From the sequence record OQ845957.1: a stretch of 64,000 nucleotides of DNA. One strand, given 5' to 3'. Origin of the DNA: Escherichia phage pEC-M719-6WT.1. The notes below the pieces were generated by a model. That model was not told where the DNA came from and searched no databases. It worked only from the letters and a program-made list of their open reading frames with translations. How positions within the stretch are numbered: the first letter of the stretch is position 1; each line of letters opens with the position of its first letter. Position numbers and translations under genes: made by a program. Shown piece after piece: positions 4,468 through 64,000 of the stretch.

Positions 4468-4767
4468 CTAATCTACCTTACTTAAGTTGAAGTTTAAGCC
4501 AAGTTTATCACAAACACTAATCATGTAGTCAAGAGATACTTTCCCACTACCATTCAGAATGTTTGAGACTCTGGCTTGAGATATTTCACAAATCTTTGCT
4601 ACCTGAATCTGTGAAAGGTTGTTTCTTTTCATGTGGATGTTTAACTTTTCAGAGATGTAAAACTTCATCTCATCAACATCCATTCCTGCTATATAAGCTT
4701 CCATTTCAGCCTCTCTATCTGCCCCCCAATCATCTTGAGGTGCATAAGGGTCAAAGATACTATTCAT
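4468..4767 (-). CDS. HTH (XRE-like) DNA-binding protein
   Basis: C-terminal helix-turn-helix-like segment LSQIQVAKICEISQARVSNILNG. Confidence 0.4.
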   Translation of the reverse strand: MNSIFDPYAPQDDWGADREAEMEAYIAGMDVDEMKFYISEKLNIHMKRNNLSQIQVAKICEISQARVSNILNGSGKVSLDYMISVCDKLGLNFNLSKVD

Positions 4768-4963
4768 CTTTCTTTCTCCGTTTACGAGAAGTGTCGATTA
4801 ACGAATCAAGGTTAGTAGCTCTAACTTGTTCACGAGTACCATTGATGTAGTTATCAAGGGACTCTACAACAGTGTTGAAGTCTTTAGCCCAAACTCTGTA
4901 AATAACTACGCCGTCATCGTCAATAACTTCACCATAGTCTACTCTACAGATACTCTTCTTCAT
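4760..4963 (-). CDS. hypothetical protein
   Basis: 67 aa ORF with basic C-terminus. Confidence 0.25.
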   Translation of the reverse strand: MKKSICRVDYGEVIDDDGVVIYRVWAKDFNTVVESLDNYINGTREQVRATNLDSLIDTSRKRRKKDE

Positions 4964-5515: not shown

Positions 5516-5731
5516 CATCACTTAAAAATCCTCTTAAAGACCCTTAAGTGATGTAAGTCTCATTTTAATGTAGCTGAGACTAACTACCCATACCATGCCT
5601 TACACCACCGAACCACACCAAACCACACCAAACCATACCAAACCATACCAAACCATACCATACCAAACCAGAGCCTACTATACCATACCGAACCTCACTT
5701 AAAAACCCTCTTAGAAGACTCTTAAGTGATG
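5516..5731. repeat. composite repeat: two ~36-bp palindromic elements (CATCACTTAA-N18-TTAAGTGATG) flanking tandem decamer repeats (CCAAACCATA x5-6)
   Basis: Direct reading of 5516-5553, 5607-5675 and 5695-5731; intergenic. Confidence 0.7.
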
Positions 5732-5795
5732 CTGGTGAGTACCCGTTGGTTTATGCTGCTCAGTATACTCACCAAATTTTCTATGTCAACAACTT

Positions 5796-6896
5796 TTATT
5801 CATAATCTCGAATAACTAACCCAACAGGGAACTGTAAAGAACCCTTACGAGTCATCTTCTGGAACTGAACCGTTAAAGGTTTCCCGATAAACTCTTCAGG
5901 ATGTTCAGCAAGATACTGTTTCTTCTCATGGGTAGTCTTCCATGAAACATCTACAAAGACATTAGGAAGAGTCTCTACAACGAACTTACCATGACCACGC
6001 TTATCAGTCTTCACACCAGTTACTTTAAATTCCTCTGTGTGCATCTTCTTATGTTTAATCAGGAAGTAAGAACGGTGACCACACTCATAGAAAGAATCTG
6101 CTGAAATGGAACGGTACATTGCCCCTTCAAACTTCAGCTTAACCCAATTATCATGGGCTTTGTCAAACTCTTCCCAAGAGTTAACACGTATAGTTTGAAC
6201 AGGTACAACCTTGCAAGCATCGCCAAGTTCAACGATTGGTGAATTATCAATGATTTCACGTCGCTCAGGCCAAGACTTAGTGCTATCACAGATATCATAC
6301 CAGTAGAACTTAAGAAGGTGACGGTCTGGATTGTCAGCATTCTTAATCATTGAAACAATATCTTCCAAATCCCAACCATGAGCATAAATCTCACCATCGA
6401 AGTCTGCAACTTGTGGATGGCATTTAAGCAGTAAAAGTAAGTCTGGAATTAACTCTTCAGGTACGTTGTACACAGTATTTTCACGGGAATAAGCTGTGAA
6501 GTTCACTGAGTCAACATCTCTTGAAATCCTGCAACGAACACCATCAAGTTTTGGTTGAGCGTCAGCAGGGAATTTCAAATACTTTGCATGACTAACCTTG
6601 GAAGCATCATGAGCAAGCTGTACACCTACCTTTTCAGTATTCTGTGCAGACTCTTTTGTGTAAGCATAACCTTTGCGGTCAACTTGCTTCTTGTACTTAG
6701 CAGCAACTTCAAAGAGAGCTTGCTGTTCAGCGTTACGCTCATTCTTTTTACCGATGTTTTTCGGTTCTGCTGTGTACTCTTCAAACATCATCTTGCCATT
6801 CTCTTTACCATAGGTGGTAACAACTTTGTCACCTACAGCAACACATGACCAGACGTTAAAGGAACCATCTTTATTTTGTTTGTACAGAATTGTCAT
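5796..6896 (-). CDS. ATP-dependent DNA ligase
   Basis: 366 aa; adenylation motif KLDGVRC (KxDG). Confidence 0.7.
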   Translation of the reverse strand: MTILYKQNKDGSFNVWSCVAVGDKVVTTYGKENGKMMFEEYTAEPKNIGKKNERNAEQQALFEVAAKYKKQVDRKGYAYTKESAQNTEKVGVQLAHDASKVSHAKYLKFPADAQPKLDGVRCRISRDVDSVNFTAYSRENTVYNVPEELIPDLLLLLKCHPQVADFDGEIYAHGWDLEDIVSMIKNADNPDRHLLKFYWYDICDSTKSWPERREIIDNSPIVELGDACKVVPVQTIRVNSWEEFDKAHDNWVKLKFEGAMYRSISADSFYECGHRSYFLIKHKKMHTEEFKVTGVKTDKRGHGKFVVETLPNVFVDVSWKTTHEKKQYLAEHPEEFIGKPLTVQFQKMTRKGSLQFPVGLVIRDYE

Positions 6897-54648: not shown

Positions 54649-55239
54649 TTAAGCCATAGTCTTAAGCATGTTTTTAAGTTTTTTGAGATTCATAGCCTCA
54701 TCTAACTCAAATCCAAATCCATTGACATACTCAATGAAATCAGATTTCTTACTCAGAGAGAGTGCATAACTCATATCAAAGTCATTACTAGGAGTTGACT
54801 CTGGAGAAGTGTTCACATCGAAAGAAATCTCAGTGGCTGTTGATTCTTCATCTCTCATGTTATCAATTACAACACATGTATAGTTGGCTGGAGAGAAGTT
54901 TGTTGAACCTTCCACATAGCTATACTTTTCGTTGTGAATAAGGTTTGAGAATACCTTGAAGAAAGTTTCAGAATCGTGGCAGACGAGTTTAAATTCACTC
55001 TTTCCACCAAGAGCCATAAGTGAATATGGGTTTTCACCATCAATGTTATAAGCAGGGTTCATACACTGAACTGTCACACGCATGAGGTTGTTTGTGATAG
55101 TCTTCTGTTTAAAAGAATTAGGAACGTAGTGCATACCTCTTCCACACTGATTAACTAATTCTTTTAGAAGGTCATCGGAGTATGGCGAAGTGATAGATAC
55201 AGACCCATCACCATTATAATTAAAACTTACATTTAACAT
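54649..55239 (-). CDS. hypothetical protein
   Basis: 196 aa ORF. Confidence 0.3.
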   Translation of the reverse strand: MLNVSFNYNGDGSVSITSPYSDDLLKELVNQCGRGMHYVPNSFKQKTITNNLMRVTVQCMNPAYNIDGENPYSLMALGGKSEFKLVCHDSETFFKVFSNLIHNEKYSYVEGSTNFSPANYTCVVIDNMRDEESTATEISFDVNTSPESTPSNDFDMSYALSLSKKSDFIEYVNGFGFELDEAMNLKKLKNMLKTMA

Positions 55240-55466
55240 TTGTTAGTTCTCCTACGATTAATAATTTTGCTGCAATAGAGAAATGAAGCAAATTCACTGG
55301 AAGAAACCATTAAAACTTGTTCACTAGATTGAGCTACAGCCCTGAAGTAAATTGCTGTCAAAGCATCATAGTGTTTATTCTTTCCTACTGAAGTGAAATA
55401 TCCATGACTCTTTGCAGTTTGATACAAATCTATAATATCTGTGATTTCTAATTGGGAGCTACACAT
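55233..55466 (-). CDS. hypothetical protein
   Basis: 77 aa ORF. Confidence 0.3.
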   Translation of the reverse strand: MCSSQLEITDIIDLYQTAKSHGYFTSVGKNKHYDALTAIYFRAVAQSSEQVLMVSSSEFASFLYCSKIINRRRTNKC

Positions 55467-55675
55467 AATAAATCCTCTTGTCTTCTATAATTCTGGAAGT
55501 ACAGGTACAAACCAATTTCAGAGGACGAATAGTGGATTGCTTCCACACGTTTTGATTCCTTACAGTGATTGGTATTATTACCTTTCTTCTTTTTGGTAGT
55601 TTTTCTCATTAAGTCTCCTTTGTAGAAAGGCAGACCTACAGCTTTAGTAAGATGGTACAGTAATCCATACAACAA
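55448..55675 (-). CDS. hypothetical basic protein
   Basis: 75 aa ORF. Confidence 0.3.
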   Translation of the reverse strand: MLYGLLYHLTKAVGLPFYKGDLMRKTTKKKKGNNTNHCKESKRVEAIHYSSSEIGLYLYFQNYRRQEDLLCVAPN

Positions 55676-55706
55676 GTCAAGAAAAATTACAATATCAAAA
55701 TTTTAC

Positions 55707-55735
55707 TTGACAAACCTCTTGACAAGGTGTAAGTT
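55707..55735 (+). promoter_or_regulatory. sigma70-like promoter (TTGACA-N17-TAAGTT), second TTGACA 12 bp downstream
   Basis: Divergent intergenic region. Confidence 0.35.
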
Positions 55736-55858
55736 AATAAAACACTTAGAAGATAACTTAAAAGACTCTTCTAAAAAGGCTATTTAAACAGATATCTTTC
55801 TGGATATCTATCTCTTATCTTAAAAGCCTTTTAAGAAGTCTTCATAGTAGGAGTCCCA

Positions 55859-56233
55859 ATGACCAAAAGAACAAACAAAGGCCAATTCAAAAAAGGCCAA
55901 TCTGGTAACCCATCAGGGAGACCAAAAGGTTCCCGTAACAAGAGTTCTCTTGTAAAAGCCCAATTAACCATTGACAACTCAGCAGAGTTTGCTGCAAAGT
56001 TGTTTGAAGCAATCGTCACCAGAGACCCTGTAAAGCTTGCAGAGTTTGGTCTTTCACCAAATGATGTTCAGCTAAAATCCATGATGGAGGCTGGTAAGGT
56101 CATCATGACCCACTCAGCAGGTGAGATGAAAGCTATTGCGGTTGATAACAAGAAGAACCCTGATAATGTCGGGGGTAATACTCCACAGGAGAATAAACCA
56201 ACGTTCTCTCCAGTGGCAGCGATTAAAAGATAA
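55859..56233 (+). CDS. hypothetical basic protein
   Basis: N-terminal KGQSGNPSGRPKGSRNK motif; 124 aa. Confidence 0.3.
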   Translation: MTKRTNKGQFKKGQSGNPSGRPKGSRNKSSLVKAQLTIDNSAEFAAKLFEAIVTRDPVKLAEFGLSPNDVQLKSMMEAGKVIMTHSAGEMKAIAVDNKKNPDNVGGNTPQENKPTFSPVAAIKR

Positions 56234-56245
56234 TTTAAAAAGGTG

Positions 56246-56274
56246 TTGACAGACTTTACTTGTTACTTTAGAGT
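56246..56274 (+). promoter_or_regulatory. sigma70-like promoter (TTGACA-N17-TAGAGT) embedded in 8-bp inverted repeat GACAGACT/AGTCTGTC
   Basis: Consensus hexamers; palindrome arms at 56248-56255 and 56272-56279. Confidence 0.55.
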
Positions 56275-56313
56275 CTGTCACATCAAACAACAAATGAGAG
56301 AAGAGAGATAAAC

Positions 56314-57729
56314 ATGAGCGAATTATTTAACCACTCAAACCTTCATCAAGGTCGTACTGAAAATGGTGCTGTAAACCACACCTCTTCAATGTCAGCCTTG
56401 GTAGACTTCTACAAAGCTGCTGGCTCTAGCCGCAACTACGTAGAGAAACTTCCAAATCTTTTCTACAAAGCTTTACGGGAAGATATTGATGTTGCTGTAC
56501 GAATCCTGCTTCATATGCGAGATGCACGAGAAGGTATGGGTGAGCGTAAAGCGTTCAGAACTGTTTTGACTGAATCCATCAAAAGCAACATCCTAGACTC
56601 TTTCCAAGTTCTACGTATCATGGAAAAGATTTCTGAACTAGGCCGTTATGATGACTTTAAAATCTTCGTAGGTACTCGATACGAAACAGATGCTTTCAAA
56701 CAACTTGAAGCAGCACTGTTAGACCCTAATACTGCACAGTTAGCTGCAAAGTGGTTACCAAGGGTTAAGCGTCGTCATATGAACTTTGTAAACCGCTTCT
56801 GTAAGTTTGCAAAGCTAAGTCAGAAAGAGTACCGACTGTTACTGTCAGCCTTGTCTGATACAGTTGAGCAGAAGATTTCTGCAAATGCTTTTGGAGAGAT
56901 TGATTACAGTAAAATCCCTTCACTGGCTGCTGCACGTTACCAGAAGCTTTTCGGTCGTAAAGATGGTGAGCGTTACAAAGCATACATTGAAGCTCTTACT
57001 AAAGGTGAGACCAAGATTAATGCTGGTGCAGTTTACCCATACGATGTGATTAAGTCAGTAAATTACGGAAACGCTACAGTTGCCAATGAACAATGGAAAG
57101 CTTTACCAAACTGGATGGCAGATGGTGAAAACATTCTCTGCATGACAGACGTATCAAGCTCTATGACTTGGGAAAGACACGGTGCAGTTACTGCTTTAGA
57201 CATTGGTGTATCACTTGCATTGTACGTAGCAGAACGCAACACAGGTTGTTTTAAAGATGAGTTAATGGTTTACTCCAGCAGACCTCACTTTATTACACTG
57301 AGTGGAGATTTAGCACAACGTAAGCGTCAGGTAATGTCTCATGTTGAGTATGGTTCAACTAACCTTCAAGCAGCATTTGACAGAATTCTTGAAATTGGTG
57401 TTAAAAATGGCTTGACACAAGAAGCTATGCCAAGTAAGCTTATTATCTTCTCTGATATGGAATTCAATCAGGTTGATGGTGCAAATGGCCTTACTAACTT
57501 TGAAGCAATTCAGAGTAAGTACAAAAAAGCTGGATATGAGATGCCACAACTGGTATTCTGGTACTTAGCTGACCGTAACGGTAATTGCGAAGTGTCTGTA
57601 AAGGATAACGGAGTAGCAATGGTTTCAGGTTTCTCTCCAGCCACCTTAAAAGCTTTGCTTGGTGGTGAGAAGTTTGACCCAATTAGCGTTATGCTTAAAG
57701 CAGTTATGATTGAGCGTTACGACTGGTAA
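56314..57729 (+). CDS. vWA (MIDAS) domain protein with N-terminal helical domain; possibly Ro60/TROVE-like
   Basis: C-terminal MIDAS-like motif CMTDVSSSM; ~270 aa helical N-terminal region; domain order matches Ro60-type proteins (architecture only). Confidence 0.45.
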   Translation: MSELFNHSNLHQGRTENGAVNHTSSMSALVDFYKAAGSSRNYVEKLPNLFYKALREDIDVAVRILLHMRDAREGMGERKAFRTVLTESIKSNILDSFQVLRIMEKISELGRYDDFKIFVGTRYETDAFKQLEAALLDPNTAQLAAKWLPRVKRRHMNFVNRFCKFAKLSQKEYRLLLSALSDTVEQKISANAFGEIDYSKIPSLAAARYQKLFGRKDGERYKAYIEALTKGETKINAGAVYPYDVIKSVNYGNATVANEQWKALPNWMADGENILCMTDVSSSMTWERHGAVTALDIGVSLALYVAERNTGCFKDELMVYSSRPHFITLSGDLAQRKRQVMSHVEYGSTNLQAAFDRILEIGVKNGLTQEAMPSKLIIFSDMEFNQVDGANGLTNFEAIQSKYKKAGYEMPQLVFWYLADRNGNCEVSVKDNGVAMVSGFSPATLKALLGGEKFDPISVMLKAVMIERYDW

Positions 57730-57746
57730 GAATTTTAAAAAGGGTA

Positions 57747-57775
57747 TTGACAAAGTGTTTAATACCCTTTAATAT
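57747..57775 (+). promoter_or_regulatory. sigma70-like promoter (TTGACA-N17-TAATAT) inside 10-bp inverted repeat AAAGGGTATT/AATACCCTTT
   Basis: Direct reading; palindrome overlaps -35 and spacer. Confidence 0.5.
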
Positions 57776-57837
57776 GTTCTACATAGAAACGAAAAAGAGT
57801 TTTTCTAAAATAAATTGAAGAGATTTTAAAAAATCTC

Positions 57838-57867
57838 TTGACAACCACTAAAAAATAGTGCTATAGT
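57838..57867 (+). promoter_or_regulatory. sigma70-like promoter (TTGACA-N18-TATAGT) for tRNA cluster, with flanking palindromes
   Basis: Palindromes AGAGATTTTAAAAAATCTCT upstream and CACTAAAAAATAGTG in spacer; first tRNA starts ~28 nt downstream. Confidence 0.5.
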
Positions 57868-57894
57868 GGTTACATAGATTGTTAAAAAGATTAT

Positions 57895-57971
57895 CTCTGT
57901 TTAGCTCAGTTTGGTAGAGCGTTCCGTTTGGGGCGGTAAGGCCAGAGGTTCAAGTCCTCTAACAGAGACCA
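57895..57971 (+). tRNA. tRNA-Pro (anticodon TGG, tentative)
   Basis: 7-bp acceptor CTCTGTT/AACAGAG, T-arm AGAGG-TTCAAGT-CCTCT, encoded CCA. Confidence 0.55.
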
Positions 57972-57978
57972 AATTAAT

Positions 57979-58053
57979 GTCGTAGAAGGCAAATGGTTAG
58001 CCACCTGACCTTCAATCAGTTGCTCGCGGGTTCGAATCCCGTCTACGACTCCA
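57979..58053 (+). tRNA. tRNA-Glu (anticodon TTC, tentative)
   Basis: Acceptor GTCGTAG/CTACGAC, T-loop TTCGAAT, CCA end. Confidence 0.5.
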
Positions 58054-58138
58054 AATTTGACAGAAGACCAAATACAGCAAACAACTTTTACTTTTCGCGC
58101 ATAGAAAACATAAAAAGCTTGGTCTGGTCATTAAGAAT

Positions 58139-58215
58139 TGCGGGTATAGAGAAAGGGCGTCTCACATGTCTCATTAGCATGGTATCGGCAGGTTCGACTC
58201 CTGCACCCGCCTCCA
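58139..58215 (+). tRNA. tRNA with CAT anticodon (Met/Ile2/initiator unresolved); 1:72 mismatch
   Basis: Anticodon arm CATGT-CTCATTA-GCATG, T-arm GCAGG-TTCGACT-CCTGC. Confidence 0.5.
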
Positions 58216-58296
58216 AATTTACAGAAGACCGTTTACAGCAATTCAAACAATTTTATCGGAAAATTAAAATGAATACGGTCTGGTAATGTTAAACAT

Positions 58297-58373
58297 GGTT
58301 AGGAAGCACATAAGGCATGTGCGGTCGGCTGTTAACCGAATGGCACAGGGTTCGAATCCCTGACTAACCGCCA
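58297..58373 (+). tRNA. tRNA-Asn (anticodon GTT)
   Basis: Anticodon loop CTGTTAA, T-arm CAGGG-TTCGAAT-CCCTG, CCA end. Confidence 0.6.
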
Positions 58374-58383
58374 AAATTTAAAT

Positions 58384-58471
58384 GCGTCGTTATCCCGTAG
58401 ATGGAAGCGGTGGTGACTGTAAATCACTTGTCATTACGACTCGGTAGGTTCGACTCCTTCACGGCGCACCA
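58384..58471 (+). tRNA. tRNA-Tyr (anticodon GTA), class II
   Basis: 88 nt with long variable arm; anticodon loop CTGTAAA. Confidence 0.6.
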
Positions 58472-58477
58472 AACAAA

Positions 58478-58555
58478 GGTTATGTAGTTTAATTTGGTTA
58501 AAATACCTCCCTGTCACGGAGGAAGATGTGGGTTCAAGTCCCATCATAACCGCCA
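58478..58555 (+). tRNA. tRNA-Asp (anticodon GTC)
   Basis: Acceptor GGTTATG/CATAACC; anticodon arm CCTCC-CTGTCAC-GGAGG. Confidence 0.65.
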
Positions 58556-58975
58556 ATTTTGAGAGGGCTTTTTAGCCCCTCCCTTAAAGAGTTCTTACGA
58601 GTATTCTTTAAAGGAGCAGAAGACCAAATTCAGCAAGTTACTTAAAATTTCAAGCCAATTTAATTTTGAAAAATTTAAAACTTGGTCTGGTTCCAACAAA
58701 TTTACAGAAGACCGTTTACAGCAATTTAAATCTATTTCTCTCAAAAAGAAAAGGTGAAGGTTCGATTCCTTCACACGTTACGGCGTGTTGGTGTAATGGA
58801 AGCACTTTAGATAATAACGGTCTGGTAATCCTCTTTGCAGTGACTTATGGAGCTAATATATCGTCCCATGAGTGCCGATGAATTTCCTTAGCATGATTCT
58901 AGATTAGCTTAATAGGAAATGACTCTACAAGCCCTTTAGCAAGGTTTGCGTAGGTTACTGCAAAGATGATTTAAT

Positions 58976-59051
58976 GGGAGTGTAGCAGAATGGTGATGCG
59001 GCAGACTTTTAATCTGACAGGCGACGGGTTCGAATCCCTCCACTCCTACCA
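58976..59051 (+). tRNA. tRNA-Lys (anticodon TTT)
   Basis: Anticodon loop CTTTTAA; T-loop TTCGAAT; weak T-stem. Confidence 0.5.
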
Positions 59052-59055
59052 ATAT

Positions 59056-59132
59056 GGTTCAGTCGCAGATAAGGTAATGCAAGGGTTTCATAAGCCCTAT
59101 GAATGTGGGTTCGATTCCCACCTGAACCTCCA
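59056..59132 (+). tRNA. tRNA with CAT anticodon (Met or Ile2)
   Basis: Perfect acceptor GGTTCAG/CTGAACC; anticodon arm AGGGT-TTCATAA-GCCCT; T-arm GTGGG-TTCGATT-CCCAC. Confidence 0.65.
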
Positions 59133-59134
59133 AT

Positions 59135-59209
59135 TGTGGGTTAGCATAAATGGTAATGCAAACGGCTGATAACCGTTAGAAGAGGGTTCGATACCCTCAC
59201 CTACAACCA
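59135..59209 (+). tRNA. tRNA-Ile (anticodon GAT)
   Basis: Anticodon arm AACGG-CTGATAA-CCGTT; T-arm GAGGG-TTCGATA-CCCTC. Confidence 0.65.
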
Positions 59210-59224
59210 ATTTCAATAAAGTTG

Positions 59225-59253
59225 TTGACATTGAGATGTGACTACTTTATAGT
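59225..59253 (+). promoter_or_regulatory. sigma70 consensus-like promoter (TTGACA-N17-TATAGT) inside tRNA cluster
   Basis: Near-consensus hexamers with exact 17-bp spacer. Confidence 0.6.
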
Positions 59254-59486
59254 TACCTTAGTTTTCGTTAGCGTAGCGTCTATTTTGCAAACTTAAAAAT
59301 AAATGCAAACGATAATGTTTTTCTGGCAGTAGCTTAATAGGCTAAACACCAGTGAGGTCTTCCAATCCCTCATCAAAGAATTTGGCGTACTAGCCCACGG
59401 TATGATTAATAAAGTGGGCAACATTCTAAAGGGTATCCCTTATGGGGCTTGGCTTAAATGCAATGAGTACCCTTTAAAATGTTAAT
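59254..59486 (+). ncRNA. candidate structured ncRNA downstream of internal promoter
   Basis: ~230 nt with no ORF and no canonical tRNA fold; nested stems GCCCAC..GTGGGC and AAGGGTA..TACCCTT. Confidence 0.3.
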
Positions 59487-59563
59487 GCACCCTTAGTTCA
59501 ACTGGACAGAGCAAATGACTTCTAATCATTGAGTTACAGGTTCGAATCCTGTAGGGTGTTCCA
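59487..59563 (+). tRNA. tRNA-Arg (anticodon TCT)
   Basis: Anticodon arm AATGA-CTTCTAA-TCATT; T-arm ACAGG-TTCGAAT-CCTGT. Confidence 0.65.
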
Positions 59564-59623
59564 ATTTAATGGTCAAGACAACACTAGTAAGTCATCTTCG
59601 ATACATGTTAAGAGATGAACGAA

Positions 59624-59691
59624 AGTCGGAAAGTTGCTGAAGGTTAGCTACCTTCGATAGTAAGTAGGTTCGACTCCTACCTTGGCTGCCA
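59624..59691 (+). tRNA. aberrant tRNA-like element (~68 nt; D-arm not resolvable)
   Basis: Good T-arm GTAGG-TTCGACT-CCTAC and CCA end, stem GAAGG-TTAGCTA-CCTTC, but no standard D-arm or full acceptor pairing. Confidence 0.3.
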
Positions 59692-59833
59692 AATAGTTAG
59701 CAGATTGCTTAGACGACCTTAACGGGTCTCCGTGTAAGGAGGTGGTCTGTATCTCATGTTTCCAGAGCATGTAAAATATTCTGAGAAGGGGCTTTACAGT
59801 GTTGTGATAATACGGTAAGCTTCGAATTATAGT

Positions 59834-59916
59834 ATGGGACGATGTTAAGACACTAAGGCATGTGCGTAAGCCTCCAAAACTTACTCAAAGGGGTTCGAAT
59901 CCTCCGTCCCATGCCA
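59834..59916 (+). tRNA. atypical tRNA-like element (possible anticodon CCA/Trp; ~8-nt insertion between acceptor and D-stem)
   Basis: Perfect acceptor ATGGGAC/GTCCCAT, T-loop TTCGAAT, CCA end; body 83 nt without a class II variable arm. Confidence 0.35.
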
Positions 59917-59929
59917 AAGTCTTATTAGG

Positions 59930-60017
59930 GGTAGGTAGCGGCTAATGGAAGCCAAACTGTCTTGAAAACAGTTGCCACTGTAGAGATACGGTGAGGGTTC
60001 GACTCCTTTACTTACCG
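59930..60017 (+). tRNA. tRNA-Ser (anticodon TGA), class II
   Basis: Anticodon arm ACTGT-CTTGAAA-ACAGT; long variable arm; CCA not encoded. Confidence 0.6.
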
Positions 60018-60019
60018 CC

Positions 60020-60272
60020 TAATAAGATTTGAAATCCACGCTACTGTTATTACGTGCGTTCGGTTTCCTCTAACGTGTATTGGCGTACACGGCACTGATG
60101 GAGCACCTAGTAGGTGTCACGGAGAAGAGATAGTATCAAGCTCTCCAAAGGTTCTAGTCACCGGATTAAACAAGACTATGCAAAGACTGATTAGGTCTTT
60201 TTAGAGAACTTCTGAGGCAAACTATACCATTGTTGCTTTGGGGTCTTGGAAGTTCTCTACAAAGATTTTAAT
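60020..60272 (+). ncRNA. candidate structured ncRNA / spacer within tRNA cluster
   Basis: ~250 nt without ORF or tRNA fold between two tRNAs; multiple local stems. Confidence 0.25.
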
Positions 60273-60350
60273 GGGAGATTGACGGTAATTGGTAAACCTA
60301 CCATCCTTAGAAGTTGGTGTTTGAGGGTTCGAATCCCTTGTCTCCTACCA
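60273..60350 (+). tRNA. tRNA, class I length, anticodon TAG (Leu anticodon; isotype uncertain)
   Basis: Acceptor GGGAGAT/GTCTCCT, anticodon arm CCATC-CTTAGAA-GTTGG, discriminator A. Confidence 0.45.
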
Positions 60351-60357
60351 AATTAAT

Positions 60358-60433
60358 GCAGGTGTAGCAAAATGGTTATGCGGCTGACTCTTAATCAGTA
60401 AGACGATGGGTTCAATTCCCTCCACCTGTACCA
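60358..60433 (+). tRNA. tRNA-Lys (anticodon CTT, tentative)
   Basis: Anticodon arm GCTGA-CTCTTAA-TCAGT; T-loop TTCAATT. Confidence 0.5.
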
Positions 60434-60439
60434 AACATT

Positions 60440-60515
60440 GGGGATGTAGTTTACATGGTTAAAACGTAAGTTTTGCAAACTTAAGTACAGGGTTCAATTC
60501 CCTGCTTCTCCACCA
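60440..60515 (+). tRNA. tRNA-Ala (anticodon TGC)
   Basis: Anticodon arm TAAGT-TTTGCAA-ACTTA; T-arm CAGGG-TTCAATT-CCCTG. Confidence 0.6.
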
Positions 60516-60521
60516 ATTAGT

Positions 60522-60596
60522 GCATCCATAGTTTAAACGGGAAAATTACAGTCTTCCAAACTGAGGTTGAGGGTTCGATTCCCTCTGGATGCTCCA
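60522..60596 (+). tRNA. tRNA-Gly (anticodon TCC)
   Basis: Perfect acceptor GCATCCA/TGGATGC; anticodon loop CTTCCAA. Confidence 0.6.
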
Positions 60597-60610
60597 AATT
60601 AAGGTGTGAT

Positions 60611-61024
60611 ATGAAAATATGTAGTACTTGCAGAATACCAAAAGATGAAAGCTTATTCCATAAGAATAAGAACAAGAAAGATGGTCTTCAAAGTCAATGC
60701 AAAGACTGTGCAAGACTTCGTGATGCAAAGAGTTATCAAGCAAATGATAGAAGGAAAGAGTCTATTAAAAGCACTCGTAACTTCAAGAGAGAGTATAACA
60801 AGGCTCTAGCTAGAAGGTACAAAGCTTTATGTAAATGTCATATATGTGGTGAGAAAGAGCCAGTTGCACTGGATTTACACCATACAGACCCTTCCAAGAA
60901 AGATTTGAATCCTGCATCGCTTTATTCATACTCCACAAAAAGATTAAAAGATGAAATCAGAAAGTGTATTGTCTTGTGCGCTAACTGTCACAGAAAAGTA
61001 CATGCTGGTATTATTAAAGTTTAA
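60611..61024 (+). CDS. HNH endonuclease (zinc-finger type), inserted between tRNA genes
   Basis: HNH core LDLHHTDPSKK...CANCHRKVHAG plus CxxC pairs. Confidence 0.6.
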   Translation: MKICSTCRIPKDESLFHKNKNKKDGLQSQCKDCARLRDAKSYQANDRRKESIKSTRNFKREYNKALARRYKALCKCHICGEKEPVALDLHHTDPSKKDLNPASLYSYSTKRLKDEIRKCIVLCANCHRKVHAGIIKV

Positions 61025-61025
61025 T

Positions 61026-61102
61026 GCTGCTTTCGTATAATTGGCTATTACACATCCCTTGTAAGGATGGAGATGCGGGTTCAAGTCCTGTGAGCAGCAC
61101 CA
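61026..61102 (+). tRNA. tRNA-Thr (anticodon TGT)
   Basis: Anticodon arm CATCC-CTTGTAA-GGATG; acceptor GCTGCTT/GAGCAGC. Confidence 0.6.
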
Positions 61103-61198
61103 ATTTTGAGGTCAAGTGAAAGACCGCTTGAGTCAACTGAAGACCGTAACAAATTCCACGGAGTTGAGTTAGCGGCACAACTTCAGACCTCTTTCAAA

Positions 61199-61273
61199 GC
61201 TCGCTTAGTTTATATGGTAAAGCCCCATCCTTACAAGTTGGTGAAGAAGGTTCAAGTCCTTCAGCGAGTACCA
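61199..61273 (+). tRNA. tRNA-Val (anticodon TAC)
   Basis: Anticodon arm CCATC-CTTACAA-GTTGG (same stem as 60273 element); T-arm GAAGG-TTCAAGT-CCTTC. Confidence 0.55.
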
Positions 61274-61274
61274 A

Positions 61275-61352
61275 GTTCCAGTATCCCAATTGGCAGAGGA
61301 TGCAAGCTCAAACCTTGTATTAGTGACGGTTCGAATCCGTCTTGGAACACCA
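61275..61352 (+). tRNA. tRNA, class I length, anticodon CAA (Leu anticodon; isotype uncertain)
   Basis: Anticodon arm GCAAG-CTCAAAC-CTTGT; T-arm GACGG-TTCGAAT-CCGTC; discriminator A. Confidence 0.45.
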
Positions 61353-61369
61353 AATTTTAGGAGATTCCT

Positions 61370-61582
61370 ATGAAGCCTTATGGTAGACACGGTAAAGTTG
61401 AAATTGCAAGTTGTGGTTGCTGTGCTTCTCACGATGGTGAAGAAGATTACTACAAGTGGCGTACAGACCATCGTAGACGCTTTCTCAGAAGAGATAAGAA
61501 GAAAGCTAGACAGGAATCTCGAAAAGATATTGCAGAATTAGTTCAAATGGATAGAGCAGCAACCTACGAAGTTGTCTGTTAG
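61370..61582 (+). CDS. small Cys-rich basic protein (doubtful; 3' end overlaps tRNA-Arg)
   Basis: 70 aa with GGAGA RBS but ~50-nt overlap with a well-formed tRNA. Confidence 0.2.
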   Translation: MKPYGRHGKVEIASCGCCASHDGEEDYYKWRTDHRRRFLRRDKKKARQESRKDIAELVQMDRAATYEVVC

Positions 61583-61608
61583 GGGTTCGAATCCCTTATT
61601 CTGCACCA
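61532..61608 (+). tRNA. tRNA-Arg (anticodon ACG)
   Basis: Perfect acceptor GCAGAAT/ATTCTGC; anticodon arm GCAAC-CTACGAA-GTTGT. Confidence 0.65.
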
Positions 61609-61628
61609 ATTTTAAAGAGGCTATTTAA

Positions 61629-62186
61629 ATGAGATATTTGAAGTATGCTTCATGGATTTTCCTAGCTTTGCTAGAGCCATTTGCAGCAATCTTAGCAGTT
61701 ATCTTAGCACCTTTCGTAGTTCCATTCTACAATGAGAAGAAAGGTCACTTACCTTTTGGATTCAGATGGATGGAGACTTATGATAATCCAATTGACGGTG
61801 ACAAAGGCCACGTTGAACGATGGGCTAAGATTCGAAAGATTGGCAAGCTCGGTGTTTATATGCAGAGAGTTGGATGGCTCTGGAGAAACAAAGCTTATAA
61901 CTTCTCTTACCATGTATTAGGGAGAGATGTAAAAGATGTTACTAAGTGGAAAGGTAATATCAACGTAAGTTCTAACCCTGAAGATAATCAGACAGGTTAT
62001 CTCCTGATGTGGAACAGTAATGCTTGGGGATTATTCGCTTTTATACCGTCAATTAAAATCTTTGGTAAACAGTTTTACTGGAGAATTTATGTTGGATGGA
62101 AGCTTAAAAGTGTTGTCCCAGAAGAAAGAGCATTCTCAAGGGAAAGAATTATGTTGGCATTCTTTATTCATCCACTAAGAAAGTAA
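61629..62186 (+). CDS. membrane protein
   Basis: 185 aa; N-terminal hydrophobic segment IFLALLEPFAAILAVILAPFVVPF; AAAGAGG RBS. Confidence 0.35.
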   Translation: MRYLKYASWIFLALLEPFAAILAVILAPFVVPFYNEKKGHLPFGFRWMETYDNPIDGDKGHVERWAKIRKIGKLGVYMQRVGWLWRNKAYNFSYHVLGRDVKDVTKWKGNINVSSNPEDNQTGYLLMWNSNAWGLFAFIPSIKIFGKQFYWRIYVGWKLKSVVPEERAFSRERIMLAFFIHPLRK

Positions 62187-62194
62187 AGATTTAA

Positions 62195-62270
62195 AGGGGA
62201 TTAGTTTACAAGGTTAAAACCTCGGTCTTTGAAATCGAAGAAGTTGGTTCAATTCCAACATCCCCCGCCA
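62195..62270 (+). tRNA. tRNA-Gln (anticodon TTG)
   Basis: Anticodon arm TCGGT-CTTTGAA-ATCGA; perfect T-arm GTTGG-TTCAATT-CCAAC; 1:72 mismatch. Confidence 0.6.
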
Positions 62271-62272
62271 AT

Positions 62273-62351
62273 GCTCCATTACTCCAATTGGCAGAGAGGC
62301 CAGACTTAAAATCTGTGTTATGTATCGGTTCGAATCCGATATGGAGTACCA
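62273..62351 (+). tRNA. tRNA, class I length, anticodon TAA (Leu anticodon; isotype uncertain)
   Basis: Anticodon loop CTTAAAA; T-arm ATCGG-TTCGAAT-CCGAT; discriminator A. Confidence 0.45.
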
Positions 62352-62357
62352 AATATT

Positions 62358-62433
62358 AGCAGTGTAGCATAACTGGCAATGCTCCAGCCTCTGAAGCTGA
62401 AAGATTAAGGTTCAAATCCTTACACTGCTGCCA
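62358..62433 (+). tRNA. tRNA-Gln (anticodon CTG, tentative)
   Basis: Perfect acceptor AGCAGTG/CACTGCT; anticodon loop CTCTGAA. Confidence 0.5.
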
Positions 62434-62464
62434 CTTCTAAGGGTTCTTACGAGAGTCCTTAAAT

Positions 62465-62541
62465 GTGGCCTTATCATAAATGTATAATGACCCATGCTGT
62501 GAACATGGTCTATACGGGTTCGATTCCCGTAGGTCACCCCA
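62465..62541 (+). tRNA. tRNA-His (anticodon GTG)
   Basis: Anticodon arm CCATG-CTGTGAA-CATGG perfect; T-arm ACGGG-TTCGATT-CCCGT. Confidence 0.65.
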
Positions 62542-62548
62542 ATTTTAA

Positions 62549-62623
62549 TAGCTCAATTAGCTTATATGGTTAAAGCGCGTGTCTGAAAAACATGAGAACA
62601 GGGTTCAAATCCCGATGGGCTAC
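62549..62623 (+). tRNA. tRNA-Phe (anticodon GAA)
   Basis: Acceptor TAGCTCA/TGGGCTA; anticodon loop CTGAAAA; weak T-stem. Confidence 0.5.
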
Positions 62624-62650
62624 CAATTATATAGGTGCATAATGAAAGAG

Positions 62651-63376
62651 ATGACAGGACAAGGTAAAGAGATTTTCAGTCTCCTTAAATCCGGTAACGG
62701 GTTCTCTAACCCTCTTATTACTGGTGCAGCAGTTCTTGGTGGTACAGTTGCTGCTTCTCAGTTATTAATCACTTCAATTAGCTCTGTATCAGACCCAGCT
62801 ACCCAGCAAATCCTTATTGCTGCTGGCTTGACAACTGCCTTACTAAGCAGCTTTACAACAAGCCTTGGTAGCACCACTTCAACGACAACTACTTTAACTG
62901 ACTATGGACAGAAGTCTGTAGATGAGTTTTCACAGCGTATGCAAGTAGCTAAAGGTTACTCTAACGTTATGGGAGCAGCAGGTGAACAAGTTGGCTGTAC
63001 ACCGTTTAGTGGAATCATGGGAGTTGCTACTGAATACGGTAACAAGGCTATGGATTTGATTAACACCTCCATAGATGCCGTAAACAGCGTTCTAAGCGAC
63101 TTACAGGATGCAATTGATAAAGGACTAGCAACTATCTCTGACCTCGCTACACAAGCTGTTACAGCGATTAATGAAGGTATGGCAAAGATTACTGCCTACG
63201 CTAATGAAGTGGCTCAGATGATTGCAGATGAAGCAGCAATGATTGCAGAGTATCTAAAAACCAATATTAATGGTTTCCTTGCAAATGTTTTACCAGATTG
63301 GTTTAACGATGATTGTAAGACGGGTGTAATTGATACAATTGCAACTCCAGAGATGAAAGAAGCTCTAAACAAATAA
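62651..63376 (+). CDS. hypothetical membrane-associated protein
   Basis: Track ORF 62579-63376 trimmed to internal ATG past tRNA-Phe; hydrophobic segments LITGAAVLGGTVAASQLLITSI and ILIAAGLTTALLSSF. Confidence 0.35.
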   Translation: MTGQGKEIFSLLKSGNGFSNPLITGAAVLGGTVAASQLLITSISSVSDPATQQILIAAGLTTALLSSFTTSLGSTTSTTTTLTDYGQKSVDEFSQRMQVAKGYSNVMGAAGEQVGCTPFSGIMGVATEYGNKAMDLINTSIDAVNSVLSDLQDAIDKGLATISDLATQAVTAINEGMAKITAYANEVAQMIADEAAMIAEYLKTNINGFLANVLPDWFNDDCKTGVIDTIATPEMKEALNK

Positions 63377-63379
63377 TTT

Positions 63380-63472
63380 GGAAGATTAACCCTAAAAGGT
63401 AAGGGAGCAGTTTGCTAAACTGCCAGTAGCTGAGAAATCGGTGTACCAGTTCAAGTCTGGTATCTTCCTCCA
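63380..63472 (+). tRNA. tRNA-Ser (anticodon GCT), class II
   Basis: 93 nt; perfect acceptor GGAAGAT/ATCTTCC; anticodon arm GCAGT-TTGCTAA-ACTGC; long variable arm. Confidence 0.65.
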
Positions 63473-63478
63473 AATTTT

Positions 63479-63554
63479 GCATTGGTGTCAGAAATGGATA
63501 TGTACCTGTCTGCAAAATAGGTTTATGAGGGTTCGAGTCCCTTCCAATGCTCCA
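63479..63554 (+). tRNA. tRNA-Cys (anticodon GCA)
   Basis: Perfect acceptor GCATTGG/CCAATGC; anticodon loop CTGCAAA; T-loop TTCGAGT. Confidence 0.6.
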
Positions 63555-63590
63555 ATTTACTTTAATATCTCTCTCTCTCAAAGTATATAT

Positions 63591-63650
63591 GCCCTGCTAT
63601 GAGTATTCTCCCTTTCGCTACCGGAGAGTATTTTTAGACAGGGCTTTTTT
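63591..63650 (+). terminator. long hairpin plus T-tract terminator closing tRNA cluster
   Basis: GCCCTG...CAGGGC outer stem with inner stem, followed by TTTTTT; preceded by (CT)5 microsatellite. Confidence 0.5.
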
Positions 63651-63717
63651 GTAGAGTTATACTTTATAGGAAAGACCTATACAGTATGTCTCTGGCATAC
63701 ATTGTGGTTTCTCCTTG

Positions 63718-63742
63718 ACGGTCTCTGCGCCGTCTTTTTTCA
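63718..63742 (+). terminator. intrinsic terminator
   Basis: GACGG-TCTCTGCG-CCGTC hairpin plus TTTTTT. Confidence 0.5.
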
Positions 63743-63778
63743 GAGGAACCATTAACTTATTATCTTTGGAGAAATACA

Positions 63779-63979
63779 ATGAACGAGACTAACATTTATA
63801 AAGATTTTTACGAAGCACAGCAGCAAGTTAATCTGCTGAAAAATACTATCATGTCTATTGCTGAACGTCTAATTACGGCTACTGGTATTAAACCAGGAGA
63901 AGCAACAATGGACAGTCTTCTTGATGCTGTAGATGCCAAGTTTGGTGTATGTAAAGAAGAAGAAGCTAAACCTGAATAA
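63779..63979 (+). CDS. hypothetical small protein
   Basis: 66 aa ORF with GGAGAAA RBS. Confidence 0.3.
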   Translation: MNETNIYKDFYEAQQQVNLLKNTIMSIAERLITATGIKPGEATMDSLLDAVDAKFGVCKEEEAKPE

Positions 63980-64000
63980 TTCTATTTGCAGAGGTGCTTA

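Follow-up and report, generated by a model that had tools for sequence, protein, structure and literature searches.

The window, the whole stretch of 64,000 nucleotides analysed here, contains on its plus strand a gene for a 471-aa protein that begins with ATG and occupies positions 56314–57729. Its upstream neighbour on the same strand is a gene for a 124-aa DUF5681 protein (55859–56233), which adjoins it in all Ounavirinae-like relatives examined, and a tRNA cluster follows downstream (57895–63554, plus strand). Position 56246, where the initial annotation began its description of the gene, belongs to the −35 hexamer of a promoter-like site; the start codon is at 56314. This site (56246–56279, plus strand) consists of TTGACA (56246–56251), a 17-nt spacer and TAGAGT (56269–56274); 10 of the 12 hexamer positions agree with the sigma-70 consensus. 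It lies within an 8-bp inverted repeat with the arms GACAGACT (56248–56255) and AGTCTGTC (56272–56279). The palindrome of the initial annotation was confirmed, but since the region holds 9 such sites against 6.0 ± 2.3 in shuffles, the 56246 site is promoter-like by consensus only. Two further promoter-like sites on the plus strand are located between the gene and the cluster, at 57747–57775 (10/12 consensus, inside an inverted repeat at 57739–57770) and at 57838–57867 (11/12 consensus with an extended −10 TG). Judged from their sequence, they could drive the downstream RNA cluster.

ARAGORN indicated 24 tRNAs in the cluster, all co-oriented. Three plus-strand genes were missed by this program: a tRNA-Glu at 57979–58050 (53.7 bits with Rfam), a gene at 58386–58466 that probably encodes a class-II tRNA-Tyr(GUA), and a probable tRNA-Trp(CCA) at 59834–59916, which is kept even in relatives at 53–57% protein identity and whose anticodon stem covaries. 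With the added Glu and the probable Tyr and Trp, the cluster has 27 tRNAs and covers all 20 amino acids. The cluster with T-arm-bearing and repeated elements was described correctly beforehand, while several of its presumed non-tRNA spacers are missed tRNAs. In particular, the stretches at 58386–58466 and 59832–59918 were rejected as partner RNAs because they are the probable tRNA-Tyr and tRNA-Trp. An orphan T-arm element at 59600–59700 was also rejected as a partner and looks like a lineage-restricted tRNA relic.

The 471-aa protein is a full-length member of PHROG 850, as the match (E = 1.6e-176) extends across residues 1–471. It matches the Pfam families DUF7788 (PF25043; 148.7 bits, cut-off 27.1, E = 2e-43) and DUF2828 (PF11443; 97.3 bits, cut-off 29, E = 1.2e-27). 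Homologues were found in 709 phage records, and the DUF2828 family is also present in eukaryotes, e.g. as one annotated wheat gene. Existing labels are “RNA-binding protein” for PHROG 850, “RNA-binding” or “Ro-like” in RefSeq records, and “Ro-like RNA binding protein” for the cluster-L mycobacteriophages in SEA-PHAGES. Beyond such annotation labels, the searchable literature linked neither an RNA nor a structure or function to the DUF2828/DUF7788 family.

The AF2 model of the protein (pLDDT 88.9, pTM 0.88) has helices at approximately residues 28–263, followed by an alpha/beta domain at residues 274–455. The predicted layout is a helical domain with a TROVE-like fold (approximately residues 1–265) and a vWA/MIDAS domain (approximately 274–455). 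The model bears out the helical N-terminal region, the vWA domain and the CMTDVSSSM motif that had been recognised from the sequence, and places the motif at residues 276–284. The MIDAS residues D279, S281, S283, T349 and D381, corresponding to the DxSxS...T...D pattern of the Ro60/Rsr vWA domain, show no variation in 48 family members.

Foldseek comparison with the PDB supported the Ro60/Rsr-like architecture that had been proposed at the outset. The best 12 matches were all Ro60/Rsr structures, including the Ro60 of Thermus phage phiLo, and were full-length with TM values of up to 0.66 and E-values from 8e-9 to 2e-6. The next-best matches were isolated vWA domains with E-values of ~1e-3, a gap of ~1000-fold. 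Full-length matches that included at least 200 N-terminal residues were obtained with Ro60/Rsr structures only. As in these proteins, a helical-repeat ring is predicted to be closed by the vWA domain. A combination of TROVE and vWA domains is also reported for TEP1 in a TEP1/vault preprint, which is otherwise irrelevant here.

Sequence comparison pointed to the relationship in the C-terminal part. Alignment of the family profile with a Ro60 profile by hhalign gave 86% probability (E = 4.9e-6) over family positions 232–450 only, a region comprising the last TROVE helix (AVYPYD vs RIHP), the vWA domain and a C-terminal GF(S/D) tail. Among the 48 family members, Pfam vWA_Ro60 (PF25045) was matched in 9 and VWA_2 in 29. 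Pfam TROVE (PF05731) was found in none of the 48, even at E-values up to 10, and hhalign of the N-terminal domain against a 23-sequence Ro60 profile was not significant (E = 0.43). Searches of PDB sequences with phmmer and hmmsearch, including the family profile, retrieved no Ro60 chain, and an NCBIfam search with the protein gave nothing relevant. An accepted phage Ro60 (9KOP) was likewise missed by phmmer from Rsr or human Ro60 queries. The proposal of a TROVE-type N-terminal domain is supported at the level of the fold but not of the sequence; by sequence, this domain is not TROVE. On the basis of the predicted structure, the gene product is Ro60-like, with a HEAT-repeat ring of TROVE-like fold and a vWA/MIDAS cap, and represents the divergent phage family DUF2828/DUF7788.

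The missing TROVE similarity in the N-terminal sequence would also fit a generic vWA/MIDAS adaptor that binds no RNA and whose helical domain is functionally unrelated to Ro60; an assembly factor and a co-chaperone of the MoxR type are examples. We regard such a role as very unlikely, given that the full-length structural matches are Ro60/Rsr only, that no gene for an AAA+ MoxR partner is present nearby, and that a specific structured RNA family, described below, co-localises with the gene across phyla.

Four elements of this RNA family are present in the window at 58065–58823, 336–1094 nt downstream of the Ro60-like gene and on the same strand. Three of them are “minis” of ~60 nt and one is a 115-nt “maxi”, and they are scattered among the cluster's first tRNAs. 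The family architecture consists of a covarying terminal stem, 1–3 nt, CAGCAA and a variable interior, and the conserved single-stranded (U)UA-CAGCAA motif is located immediately 3′ of the 5′ strand of the terminal stem. Mini 1 (58065–58125, plus strand) lies between tRNA-Glu and tRNA-Met and has the stem AGACCAA/TTGGTCT, AUA-CAGCAA and a variable interior. Mini 2 (58226–58281, plus strand), between tRNA-Met and tRNA-Asn, has the stem AGACCGT/ACGGTCT and UUA-CAGCAA, and mini 3 (58621–58688, plus strand) has the stem AGACCAA/TTGGTCT and AUU-CAGCAA. The maxi (58709–58823, plus strand) is YrlA-like; its stem AGACCGUU/AACGGUCU and the U-ACAGCAA motif are followed by an anticodon-like arm and then by a permuted tRNA-like domain, which the terminal stem encloses as in YrlA. 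Specifically, the core at 58751–58806 is circularly permuted in the order T-arm, closed 5-bp acceptor hairpin and D-arm. Of the three intervals flagged earlier as possible small RNAs, 58691–58860 holds this covariation-supported Y-RNA-like element, but 59254–59486 and 60020–60272 fall outside the family. The latter two contain no CAGCAA element, are conserved in close relatives only and were rejected as partner RNAs; their predicted folding is slightly better than that of shuffled sequences (z = −2.96 and −2.57, respectively).

The five-helix structure of the maxi was evaluated by covariation. In alignment A6, 95.4% of cells pair and 13 of 27 pairs show compensatory changes, including all five pairs of the acceptor-like helix. 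None of 500 shuffles reached the observed values, and slid controls paired at 42–52%. Orthologues of the maxi are present in L015 and L014, and the minimum-free-energy folds of three maxi orthologues, obtained independently, gave the same architecture. The Rfam YrlA model (RF02553, gathering score 69 bits) had no match in 58556–58975 at E-values up to 10. The sole YrlA match in the window (21.5 bits) spans the tRNA-His/tRNA-Phe junction and was rejected as an artefact. The bacterial Rsr-binding motif GNCGAAN0–1G/GNCGAAG does not occur within 55200–64000, and the 13 occurrences of GNCGAAG in the whole window correspond to the chance frequency (12.1 expected). The place equivalent to this motif is occupied by (U)UA-CAGCAA.

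The same YrlA model gave sub-threshold, full-length and same-strand matches in non-coding gaps beside DUF2828 genes of three phages, infecting Enterococcus (47.8 bits, E = 1e-7), Klebsiella (40.1 bits) and Bacillus (37.8 bits); overall, elements in phages other than that of the window scored 34–48 bits. In the permuted tRNA-like core of these three phages, 94% of cells pair and 11 of 16 pairs are compensatory, which was equalled by none of 500 shuffles. With a model built from the three cores (R1), additional cores were detected next to the gene: in Sinorhizobium phiM12 (55 bits), in Mycobacterium phage Archie (39 bits) and in the IMG/VR contigs L040 (62 bits), L033 (54 bits) and L068 (53 bits). 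Among 11 elements from five lineages, 8 have CAGCAA at 26–36 nt upstream of the core. Since tRNA–tRNA junctions reach 15–39 bits with R1, the model was rejected as a stand-alone detector and is usable only with case-by-case inspection of context and hairpin complementarity. In the window, R1 scored 32.4 bits on 58751–58806 with all three helices formed; this value is inside the junction artefact range, and the assignment of the window core is therefore supported by covariation and context, not by the score.

Of the 12 sampled phage lineages, 11 have elements beside their DUF2828 genes, on the strand of the gene and often within a few hundred nucleotides. A first census of 285 kb gave 54 elements in the orientation of the gene and 8 in the reverse orientation, compared with 5.1 ± 2.0 in shuffles. 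In an independent set of 65 IMG/VR contigs, the numbers were 64 and 12, respectively, compared with 9.8 ± 2.5 in shuffles, and 37 of the 65 loci were positive; the chance background of the strict element scan is above zero. The distances in this set peak at 0–500 nt downstream (35 elements) and 0–500 nt upstream (11 elements) of the gene. The minis have a median length of 59 nt, elements come in tandem arrays of 2–7 copies, and four copies are kept in all 15 IMG/VR Ounavirinae. No clear element was found in the Vibrio and Aeromonas T4-like members, and the protein is retained in Salmonella phage SP116 despite loss of the maxi's 3′ half. The YrlAs of phages Forza and Colt, which have a canonical Ro60, contain the same core without CAGCAA. 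The DUF2828 gene is accompanied by a nearby same-strand candidate Y RNA, as Ro60/Rsr genes are by Y RNAs, of a variant type and not a canonical YrlA. The stem–CAGCAA RNA family is apparently new.

The location of the window elements among tRNAs raises the question of whether they are processing signals of the cluster or decayed tRNA debris, including remnants of mobile HNH endonucleases, with the proximity reflecting the place of the gene beside the cluster. The resemblance of the maxi core to a T-arm and a D-arm, together with the scores of tRNA–tRNA junctions on R1, is in line with such an origin; HNH genes shift their position in the cluster among relatives, and the orphan T-arm element at 59600–59700 does resemble a relic. 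However, elements flank DUF2828 genes in the absence of any tRNA, e.g. in Mycobacterium phage Archie and at 47 of the 65 IMG/VR loci (18 have at least one tRNA). Phages of different host phyla have kept CAGCAA and the terminal stem, and compensatory changes occur in every helix of the maxi, the opposite of decay. An origin from processing signals or debris is therefore quite improbable.

Alternatively, the protein may be Ro60-like and the elements may regulate its mRNA or operon in cis, as autoregulatory binding sites, 3′-UTR stabilisers or processing sites, instead of serving as partners in trans. They share the strand of the gene, and many of the IMG/VR elements begin merely 20–40 nt past the stop codon or sit just upstream of the start codon. 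A cis-regulatory function nevertheless seems unlikely in view of the tandem arrays and of the distances in the window, where two promoter-like sites and tRNAs intervene between the gene and the elements. The elaborate tRNA-like domain of the maxis is typical of stable Y RNAs. Most elements are followed by no U-run, which indicates that they are not intrinsic terminators.

The protein fold, the RNA structure by covariation and the protein–RNA genomic linkage across phyla were computed here, and we consider that the locus probably encodes a variant Ro60–Y RNA RNP, composed of the Ro60-like protein and the four downstream small RNAs as candidate partners. The known RNPs of this type include Rsr paired with YrlA/YrlB or Yrn1 in bacteria, and phiRo60 of phage phiLo with Yrl1/Yrl2 (PDB 9KOP and 9L5Y). 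The phage protein shares their predicted fold of a helical ring with a vWA/MIDAS cap. As in these systems, the candidate RNAs are on the same strand within ~1 kb of the gene, and they are several paralogous RNAs with a common terminal stem and a conserved motif and with differing interiors. The core order of the maxi is that of YrlA, and the window minis (~60 nt) are comparable to YrlB. The gene adjoins tRNA genes and, in some phages, RtcB or RNA ligase genes, again like Ro60/Rsr genes; in Listeria phage P100 its neighbours encode RtcB, RNA ligase and an HD phosphohydrolase. In contrast to Ro60/Rsr, the N-terminal domain belongs to Pfam DUF2828 instead of PF05731. The protein has 471 aa compared with ~530 in bacterial and vertebrate Ro60, while the phiLo Ro60 chain has ~460 aa. 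The phage RNAs carry (U)UA-CAGCAA whereas the Y RNAs carry GNCGAAN0–1G/CGAA, and they differ from Ro60 Y RNAs in that the minis have just ~60 nt and that all score below the Rfam YrlA threshold.

Analogy with bacterial Rsr–YrlA–PNPase, with the rsr-yrlBA-rtcBA operon of Salmonella and with phiRo60–Yrl of the Thermus phage suggests how such an RNP might operate. A phage Ro60 binds adjacent Yrl RNAs and attenuates PNPase (PMC12135203), YrlA RNAs are encoded on the same strand as Ro60 within 4 kb (PMC4201824), and the rsr-yrlBA-rtcBA operon is implicated in tRNA repair (PMC7790460). In the phage, the four small RNAs downstream of the gene and on its strand would be the partners of the ring; they are presumably transcribed from the putative promoters at 57747 and 57838 and freed by the same processing as the cluster tRNAs. 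The ring may bind the stem/CAGCAA module, and the RNA may either gate the ring or tether it to tRNA-handling enzymes or to RNA-degrading and RNA-repair enzymes. In this way, phage tRNAs and other structured RNAs could be monitored or protected while infection proceeds.

The analysis indicates a second, sequence-divergent Ro60-like branch (DUF2828) that has its own RNA family and occurs in at least 709 sequenced phages of Proteobacteria, Firmicutes, Actinobacteria, Cyanobacteria and Campylobacterota. Ro60–Y RNA particles are found from bacteria to humans, and human Ro60 is a major autoantigen in lupus and Sjogren syndrome, while the function of the particles is poorly understood. The RNA–protein linkage points to a widespread and unstudied viral ribonucleoprotein. 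Its different candidate recognition motif, CAGCAA, would be a natural “second solution” that helps to define the essentials of RNA recognition by the Ro ring. If the RNP reading is true, a gene that is very common in phages and had no known function would be given one, and phage tRNA clusters would be tied to RNA surveillance or repair, and possibly to evasion of host tRNA-targeting defences. The coordinates of the four elements define directly testable RNAs.

The minis were also compared with the Class I RNAs of dictyostelids (Rfam RF01414; PMC7919456), which have been reported from no organism outside Dictyostelia and whose mechanism is unknown (PMC7919456). By inspection, both are of ~60 nt with a variable interior and have a covarying terminal stem (6-bp in Class I) with a UUACAGCAA-containing motif directly past its 5′ strand. 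Class I RNAs have conserved ends, 5′ AAG and 3′ CUGU; those of the phage elements are 5′ (A)AG or AGG and 3′ CU-G(U). The Rfam Class I model scored 28.4 (mini 2, E = 0.05), 20.7 and 14.9 bits on the window minis, all below the gathering score of 41.5. The model had no match at E-values up to 1 on minis from 7 other viral contigs; membership in Class I is therefore not claimed. Unlike the phage elements, Class I RNAs are eukaryotic, are transcribed from a DUSE promoter and bind the RRM protein Rnp1A/CIBP (PMC7919456), and no DUF2828 protein is known to be linked to them. DDB_G0281243, a protein of unknown function, was among the unassigned proteins pulled down with DdR-21, a Class I RNA, and the literature and supplements searched contained nothing further on that protein. 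That the minis and Class I RNAs are the same kind of RNA, both being ligands of DUF2828-type Ro60-like proteins, is a speculative suggestion that we hold with considerable doubt. If so, Class I RNAs would be analogues of Y RNAs and DDB_G0281243 might be their Ro60-like partner. A shared protein partner would make the long-standing question on Class I RNAs testable.

Small stable non-tRNA RNAs in a phage tRNA cluster have a precedent in the species 1 and species 2 RNAs of T4, for which no Ro-like protein is known and which are co-transcribed and co-processed with the phage tRNAs.

The window derives from an Ounavirinae (Felix O1-like) phage genome with DNA identities of 82–84% to its nearest GenBank relatives. 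The initial annotation described an ORF for a 471-aa protein, a palindrome-embedded promoter and a downstream tRNA cluster, and all three were recovered. The ORF lies at 56314–57729 (+), a promoter-like site (TTGACA-17 nt-TAGAGT, 56246–56279, 10/12 consensus match) sits between the inverted arms GACAGACT (56248–56255) and AGTCTGTC (56272–56279), and ARAGORN detected 24 co-oriented tRNA genes downstream of the Ro60-like protein gene. Promoter-like hexamers are also embedded in an inverted repeat with 12-bp arms (AAAGGGTATTGACA...TAATACCCTTT) at 57739–57770, and both sites resemble the "promoter stem-loops" known from other large phages.

Neither the protein family nor its loose "Ro-like" label is new. 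With E-values up to 1e-3, the homologues number more than 2,785, and the family occurs in 709 phage records, including Ounavirinae, Vibrio/Aeromonas T4-like and Listeria P100-like phages and phages of Staphylococcus, Enterococcus, Bacillus, Campylobacter, Sinorhizobium, Synechococcus and Mycobacterium (cluster L); SEA-PHAGES annotators already label the mycobacteriophage members "Ro-like RNA binding protein". In PHROGs, the 471-aa protein belongs to family 850, annotated as "RNA-binding protein", with an E-value of 1.6e-176. Its Pfam search gave DUF2828 (E 1.2e-27) and DUF7788 (E 2e-43), with neither TROVE nor VWA assigned by name. The MIDAS residues D279, S281, S283, T349 and D381 are invariant in a 48-sequence family alignment. 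At the profile level, 9 of the 48 members matched Pfam vWA_Ro60 while none of the 48 matched TROVE. Comparison of the family profile with a Ro60 profile of 23 sequences, each carrying PF05731 and PF25045, gave 86% probability (E 4.9e-6) over the last TROVE helix, the vWA domain and the C-terminal tail; the N-terminal domains alone showed no significant similarity (E 0.43). A phmmer search from Rsr or human Ro60 fails to detect even the experimentally validated phage Ro60 (9KOP). Judged by sequence, the protein is a member of a distinct family and not of the TROVE family; it is probably a remote homologue.

The structure of the 471-aa protein was predicted confidently with AlphaFold2 on the 48-sequence alignment (pLDDT 88.9, pTM 0.88). 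The best 12 Foldseek matches of the model in the PDB were all Ro60/Rsr (E 8e-9 to 2e-6; ~500–575 aligned columns, TM up to 0.66), including Thermus phage phiLo Ro60 (9KOP/9L5Y), Xenopus and human Ro60 and Deinococcus Rsr, and the matches ranking after them were isolated vWA domains (E ~1e-3). The Ro60-like architecture proposed earlier is thus borne out by the predicted model, and the protein very probably has a Ro60-like fold.

Near the gene we found a family of structured RNAs in which a single-stranded motif is conserved and the terminal stem covaries. The motif, CAGCAA, directly follows the 5' strand of the stem, whose sequence is different in every copy (e.g., AGAAUCUA/UAGAUUCU, AGAACGC/GCGUUCU, AGAAGGU/ACCUUCU and GGACUCC/GGAGUCC; AGACCGUU/AACGGUCU in the window), and the element consensus is uAA-[A/U]GG-stem-(UUA/AUU/UU)-CAGCAA(a/u)c...stem-CCU-G(a/u). 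Element lengths are bimodal, at 47–64 nt (median 59) and 87–138 nt. The window has three short elements without a tRNA-like interior ("minis", 58065–58125, 58226–58281 and 58621–58688) and a longer one ("maxi", 58709–58823) enclosing a tRNA-like core at 58751–58806. Four copies occupy corresponding positions in 15/15 IMG/VR Ounavirinae. Orthologues of the maxi were found in Citrobacter phage Michonne, Felixounavirus-type contigs and two distant relatives (L014 and L015), and every helix shows a compensatory change among them; the acceptor hairpin, for example, appears as ACACG/CGUGU, ACCCUUC/GAAGGGU, ACUCG/CGAGU and CGUGG/CCACG. In the five-helix structure 95.4% of cells pair and 13 of 27 pairs are compensatory; by every measure, 0/500 shuffles reached the observed value, and pairing in slid controls was 42–52%. 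In Staphylococcus phage Alsa_4 the motif has the variant form CAGCUAA, and no clear element was seen in Vibrio and Aeromonas T4-like DUF2828 loci.

The Ro60-like protein and RNA families show tight, strand-specific genomic linkage across host phyla. Elements were scanned strictly (stem of at least 7 bp, gap of 1–3 nt, exact CAGCAA, closing strand within 135 nt), and the resulting counts retain a chance background: in the window and 17 loci (285 kb), 54 were on the gene strand and 8 on the opposite strand, with 5.1 ± 2.0 in block shuffles. An independent set of 65 IMG/VR contigs (39–46% identity), chosen by protein similarity only, gave 64, 12 and 9.8 ± 2.5, respectively. In 37/65 IMG/VR loci the gene has an element no more than 1.5 kb away, and since the scan demands the exact motif, such positive fractions are lower bounds. 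Distances peak at 0–500 nt downstream (35 elements) and 0–500 nt upstream (11) of the gene, and many downstream elements begin 20–40 nt past the stop codon. A tRNA of any kind is present in only 18/65 of these loci, so that it is the gene, and not tRNA clusters, that the RNA tracks. No description of an RNA partner, the CAGCAA motif or gene-RNA linkage for this protein family was found in the searchable literature.

The interior of the longer elements resembles YrlA. A permissive Rfam scan of distant DUF2828 loci, counting YrlA matches below threshold, gave full-length, same-strand matches in non-coding gaps beside the gene that are sub-threshold yet statistically significant: two in Enterococcus phage GVEsP-1 (47.8 bits at E 1e-7 and 35.8 bits), two in Klebsiella phage KP2025 (40.1 and 34.3 bits) and one in Bacillus phage PBC2 (37.8 bits). 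The matched part is the permuted tRNA-like domain of YrlA (T-arm, closed 7-bp acceptor hairpin and D-arm, in order). Among six aligned cores 94% of cells pair and 11/16 pairs are compensatory; 0/500 shuffles matched this, and pairing in slid controls did not exceed 55%. A covariance model of these cores, R1, found further cores beside the DUF2828 genes of Sinorhizobium phiM12 (55 and 35 bits) and Mycobacterium phage Archie (39 bits, a locus without tRNAs) and the window core at 58751–58806 (32.4 bits), although the R1 score alone is not decisive because tRNA-tRNA junctions reach 15–39 bits. Such mimics combine the T-arm of one tRNA with the D-arm of the next (e.g., window 59100–59160 and 62319–62383), which suggests that tRNA-tRNA junctions are an evolutionary route to permuted tRNA-like domains. 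R1 cores are enclosed by maxis, for example in the IMG/VR contigs L033, L040 and L068, and CAGCAA lies 26–36 nt upstream of the core in 8/11 elements. YrlAs of canonical-Ro60 phages have the core in common with the DUF2828-linked elements but lack CAGCAA; that of Gordonia phage Forza has a CGAA-type motif in its place. In Forza (L098, 2959–7529), the canonical Ro60 gene is directly followed by a tRNA cluster with a tmRNA, and YrlA (5724–5823, 52 bits) is embedded among the tRNAs.

Comparison with six relatives (53–89% protein identity) resolved several spacers of the window cluster. Some of the presumed non-tRNA spacers do hold stem-CAGCAA elements, but others contain tRNAs missed by ARAGORN: a probable class-II tRNA-Tyr(GUA) at 58386–58466, a probable tRNA-Trp(CCA) at 59834–59916 and, by Rfam only (53.7 bits), tRNA-Glu at 57979–58050. 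The probable tRNA-Trp has a covarying anticodon stem, an unpaired position 31-39 and an encoded CCA end, and is kept even in the most distant of the six; in relatives, the Tyr and Trp genes lack annotation or carry a pseudogene label. With these additions the cluster has 27 tRNAs covering all 20 amino acids. An orphan T-arm within 59600–59700 (GUAGG-UUCGACU-CCUAC, then CUUGGCUGCCA, preceded by an anticodon-like hairpin) is confined to close relatives (SUSP1, Michonne) and probably represents a tRNA in decay. Ahead of a 233-nt spacer (within 59225–59486) whose folding is better than that of shuffles (z −2.96) lies a strong internal promoter-like site (TTGACA-17-TATAGT, 59225–59253), and a 17-bp hairpin is present in a 253-nt spacer at 60020–60272 (z −2.57); both spacers are kept among close relatives only, and neither has a CAGCAA element. 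The inter-tRNA position of an HNH endonuclease gene (window 60611–61024; relatives L001, 11212–11616, and L016, 11613–12065) differs, which suggests mobile endonuclease traffic inside the cluster. In Salmonella phage SP116 (L017, ~10006–10045, versus window 58776–59050), a deletion with both endpoints in T-arms takes out the maxi 3' half and tRNA-Lys(UUU), and looks like recombination between GGTTCGAnTCC repeats.

Among 11 distant phages, 8 have tRNAs within 5 kb of the DUF2828 gene, all co-oriented with it. The DUF2828 gene of Listeria phage P100 has a tRNA cluster on one side and, on the other, genes encoding an HD phosphohydrolase, RtcB and an RNA ligase, a neighbourhood recalling the bacterial rsr-yrlBA-rtcBA operon implicated in tRNA repair (PMC7790460).

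We favour, with some reservation, a ribonucleoprotein of the Ro60-like protein and these candidate partner RNAs. The stem/CAGCAA module would be bound by the protein in the way that the conserved Y RNA stem is bound by Ro60, and the minis and the maxi would be counterparts of YrlB and YrlA, respectively. In the window phage, promoter-like sites at 57747 and 57838 may drive transcription of the RNAs together with the first tRNAs, and tRNA processing may then release the RNAs. The particle might modulate host exoribonucleases or recruit tRNA-handling or repair enzymes, following the precedents of Rsr-Y RNA-PNPase and the PNPase-attenuating phiRo60-Yrl (PMC12135203; PMC4201824); any specific activity of this kind is much less certain than the particle or the fold.

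The minis also resemble dictyostelid Class I RNAs, which are ~60 nt long with a 6-bp covarying terminal stem, a variable interior, an 11-nt motif that comes straight after the 5' strand and AAG...CUGU ends, and are reported absent from all other organisms (PMC7919456). By inspection, length, stem, motif position, interior and ends are alike. The Rfam Dictyostelium Class I model, whose consensus at the motif is CCUUACAGCAA, gave 28.4 (58227–58282), 14.9 (58622–58689) and 20.7 bits (58710–58824), all below the gathering score of 41.5, owing to the common terminal stem, UUACAGCAA motif and ...CUG end. It did not match the minis of seven other contigs, and therefore we claim no Class I membership. 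DUF2828 is present in eukaryotes too (e.g., an annotated wheat gene), and DDB_G0281243, a protein of no known function, was pulled down with DdR-21, a Class I RNA. It seems unlikely that the minis and the Class I RNAs are the same kind of RNA, ligands of DUF2828-type proteins; if they were, DDB_G0281243 or another dictyostelid protein might be the DUF2828-type partner of Class I RNAs.

Other features were observed close to the genes of this family. P100 (L004) has a ROOL RNA match (RF03087, 3468–4019, E 8e-16; its 86 bits fall short of the 99.1-bit threshold) between tRNAs ~1 kb upstream of its DUF2828 gene, and three stem-CAGCAA elements (4661–4927) occupy the gap immediately before the gene. 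Synechococcus phage BUCT-ZZ01 (L012) has a tmRNA at 707–1125, within 4 kb of its DUF2828 gene. In the window, the gene immediately upstream of the Ro60-like gene (55859–56233) encodes a small DUF5681 protein with a basic N-terminal motif, KGQSGNPSGRPKGSRNK. This gene holds the same position, directly 5' of the Ro60-like gene, in all Ounavirinae-like relatives that were examined (L013–L017), and its product could be a partner of the Ro60-like protein.
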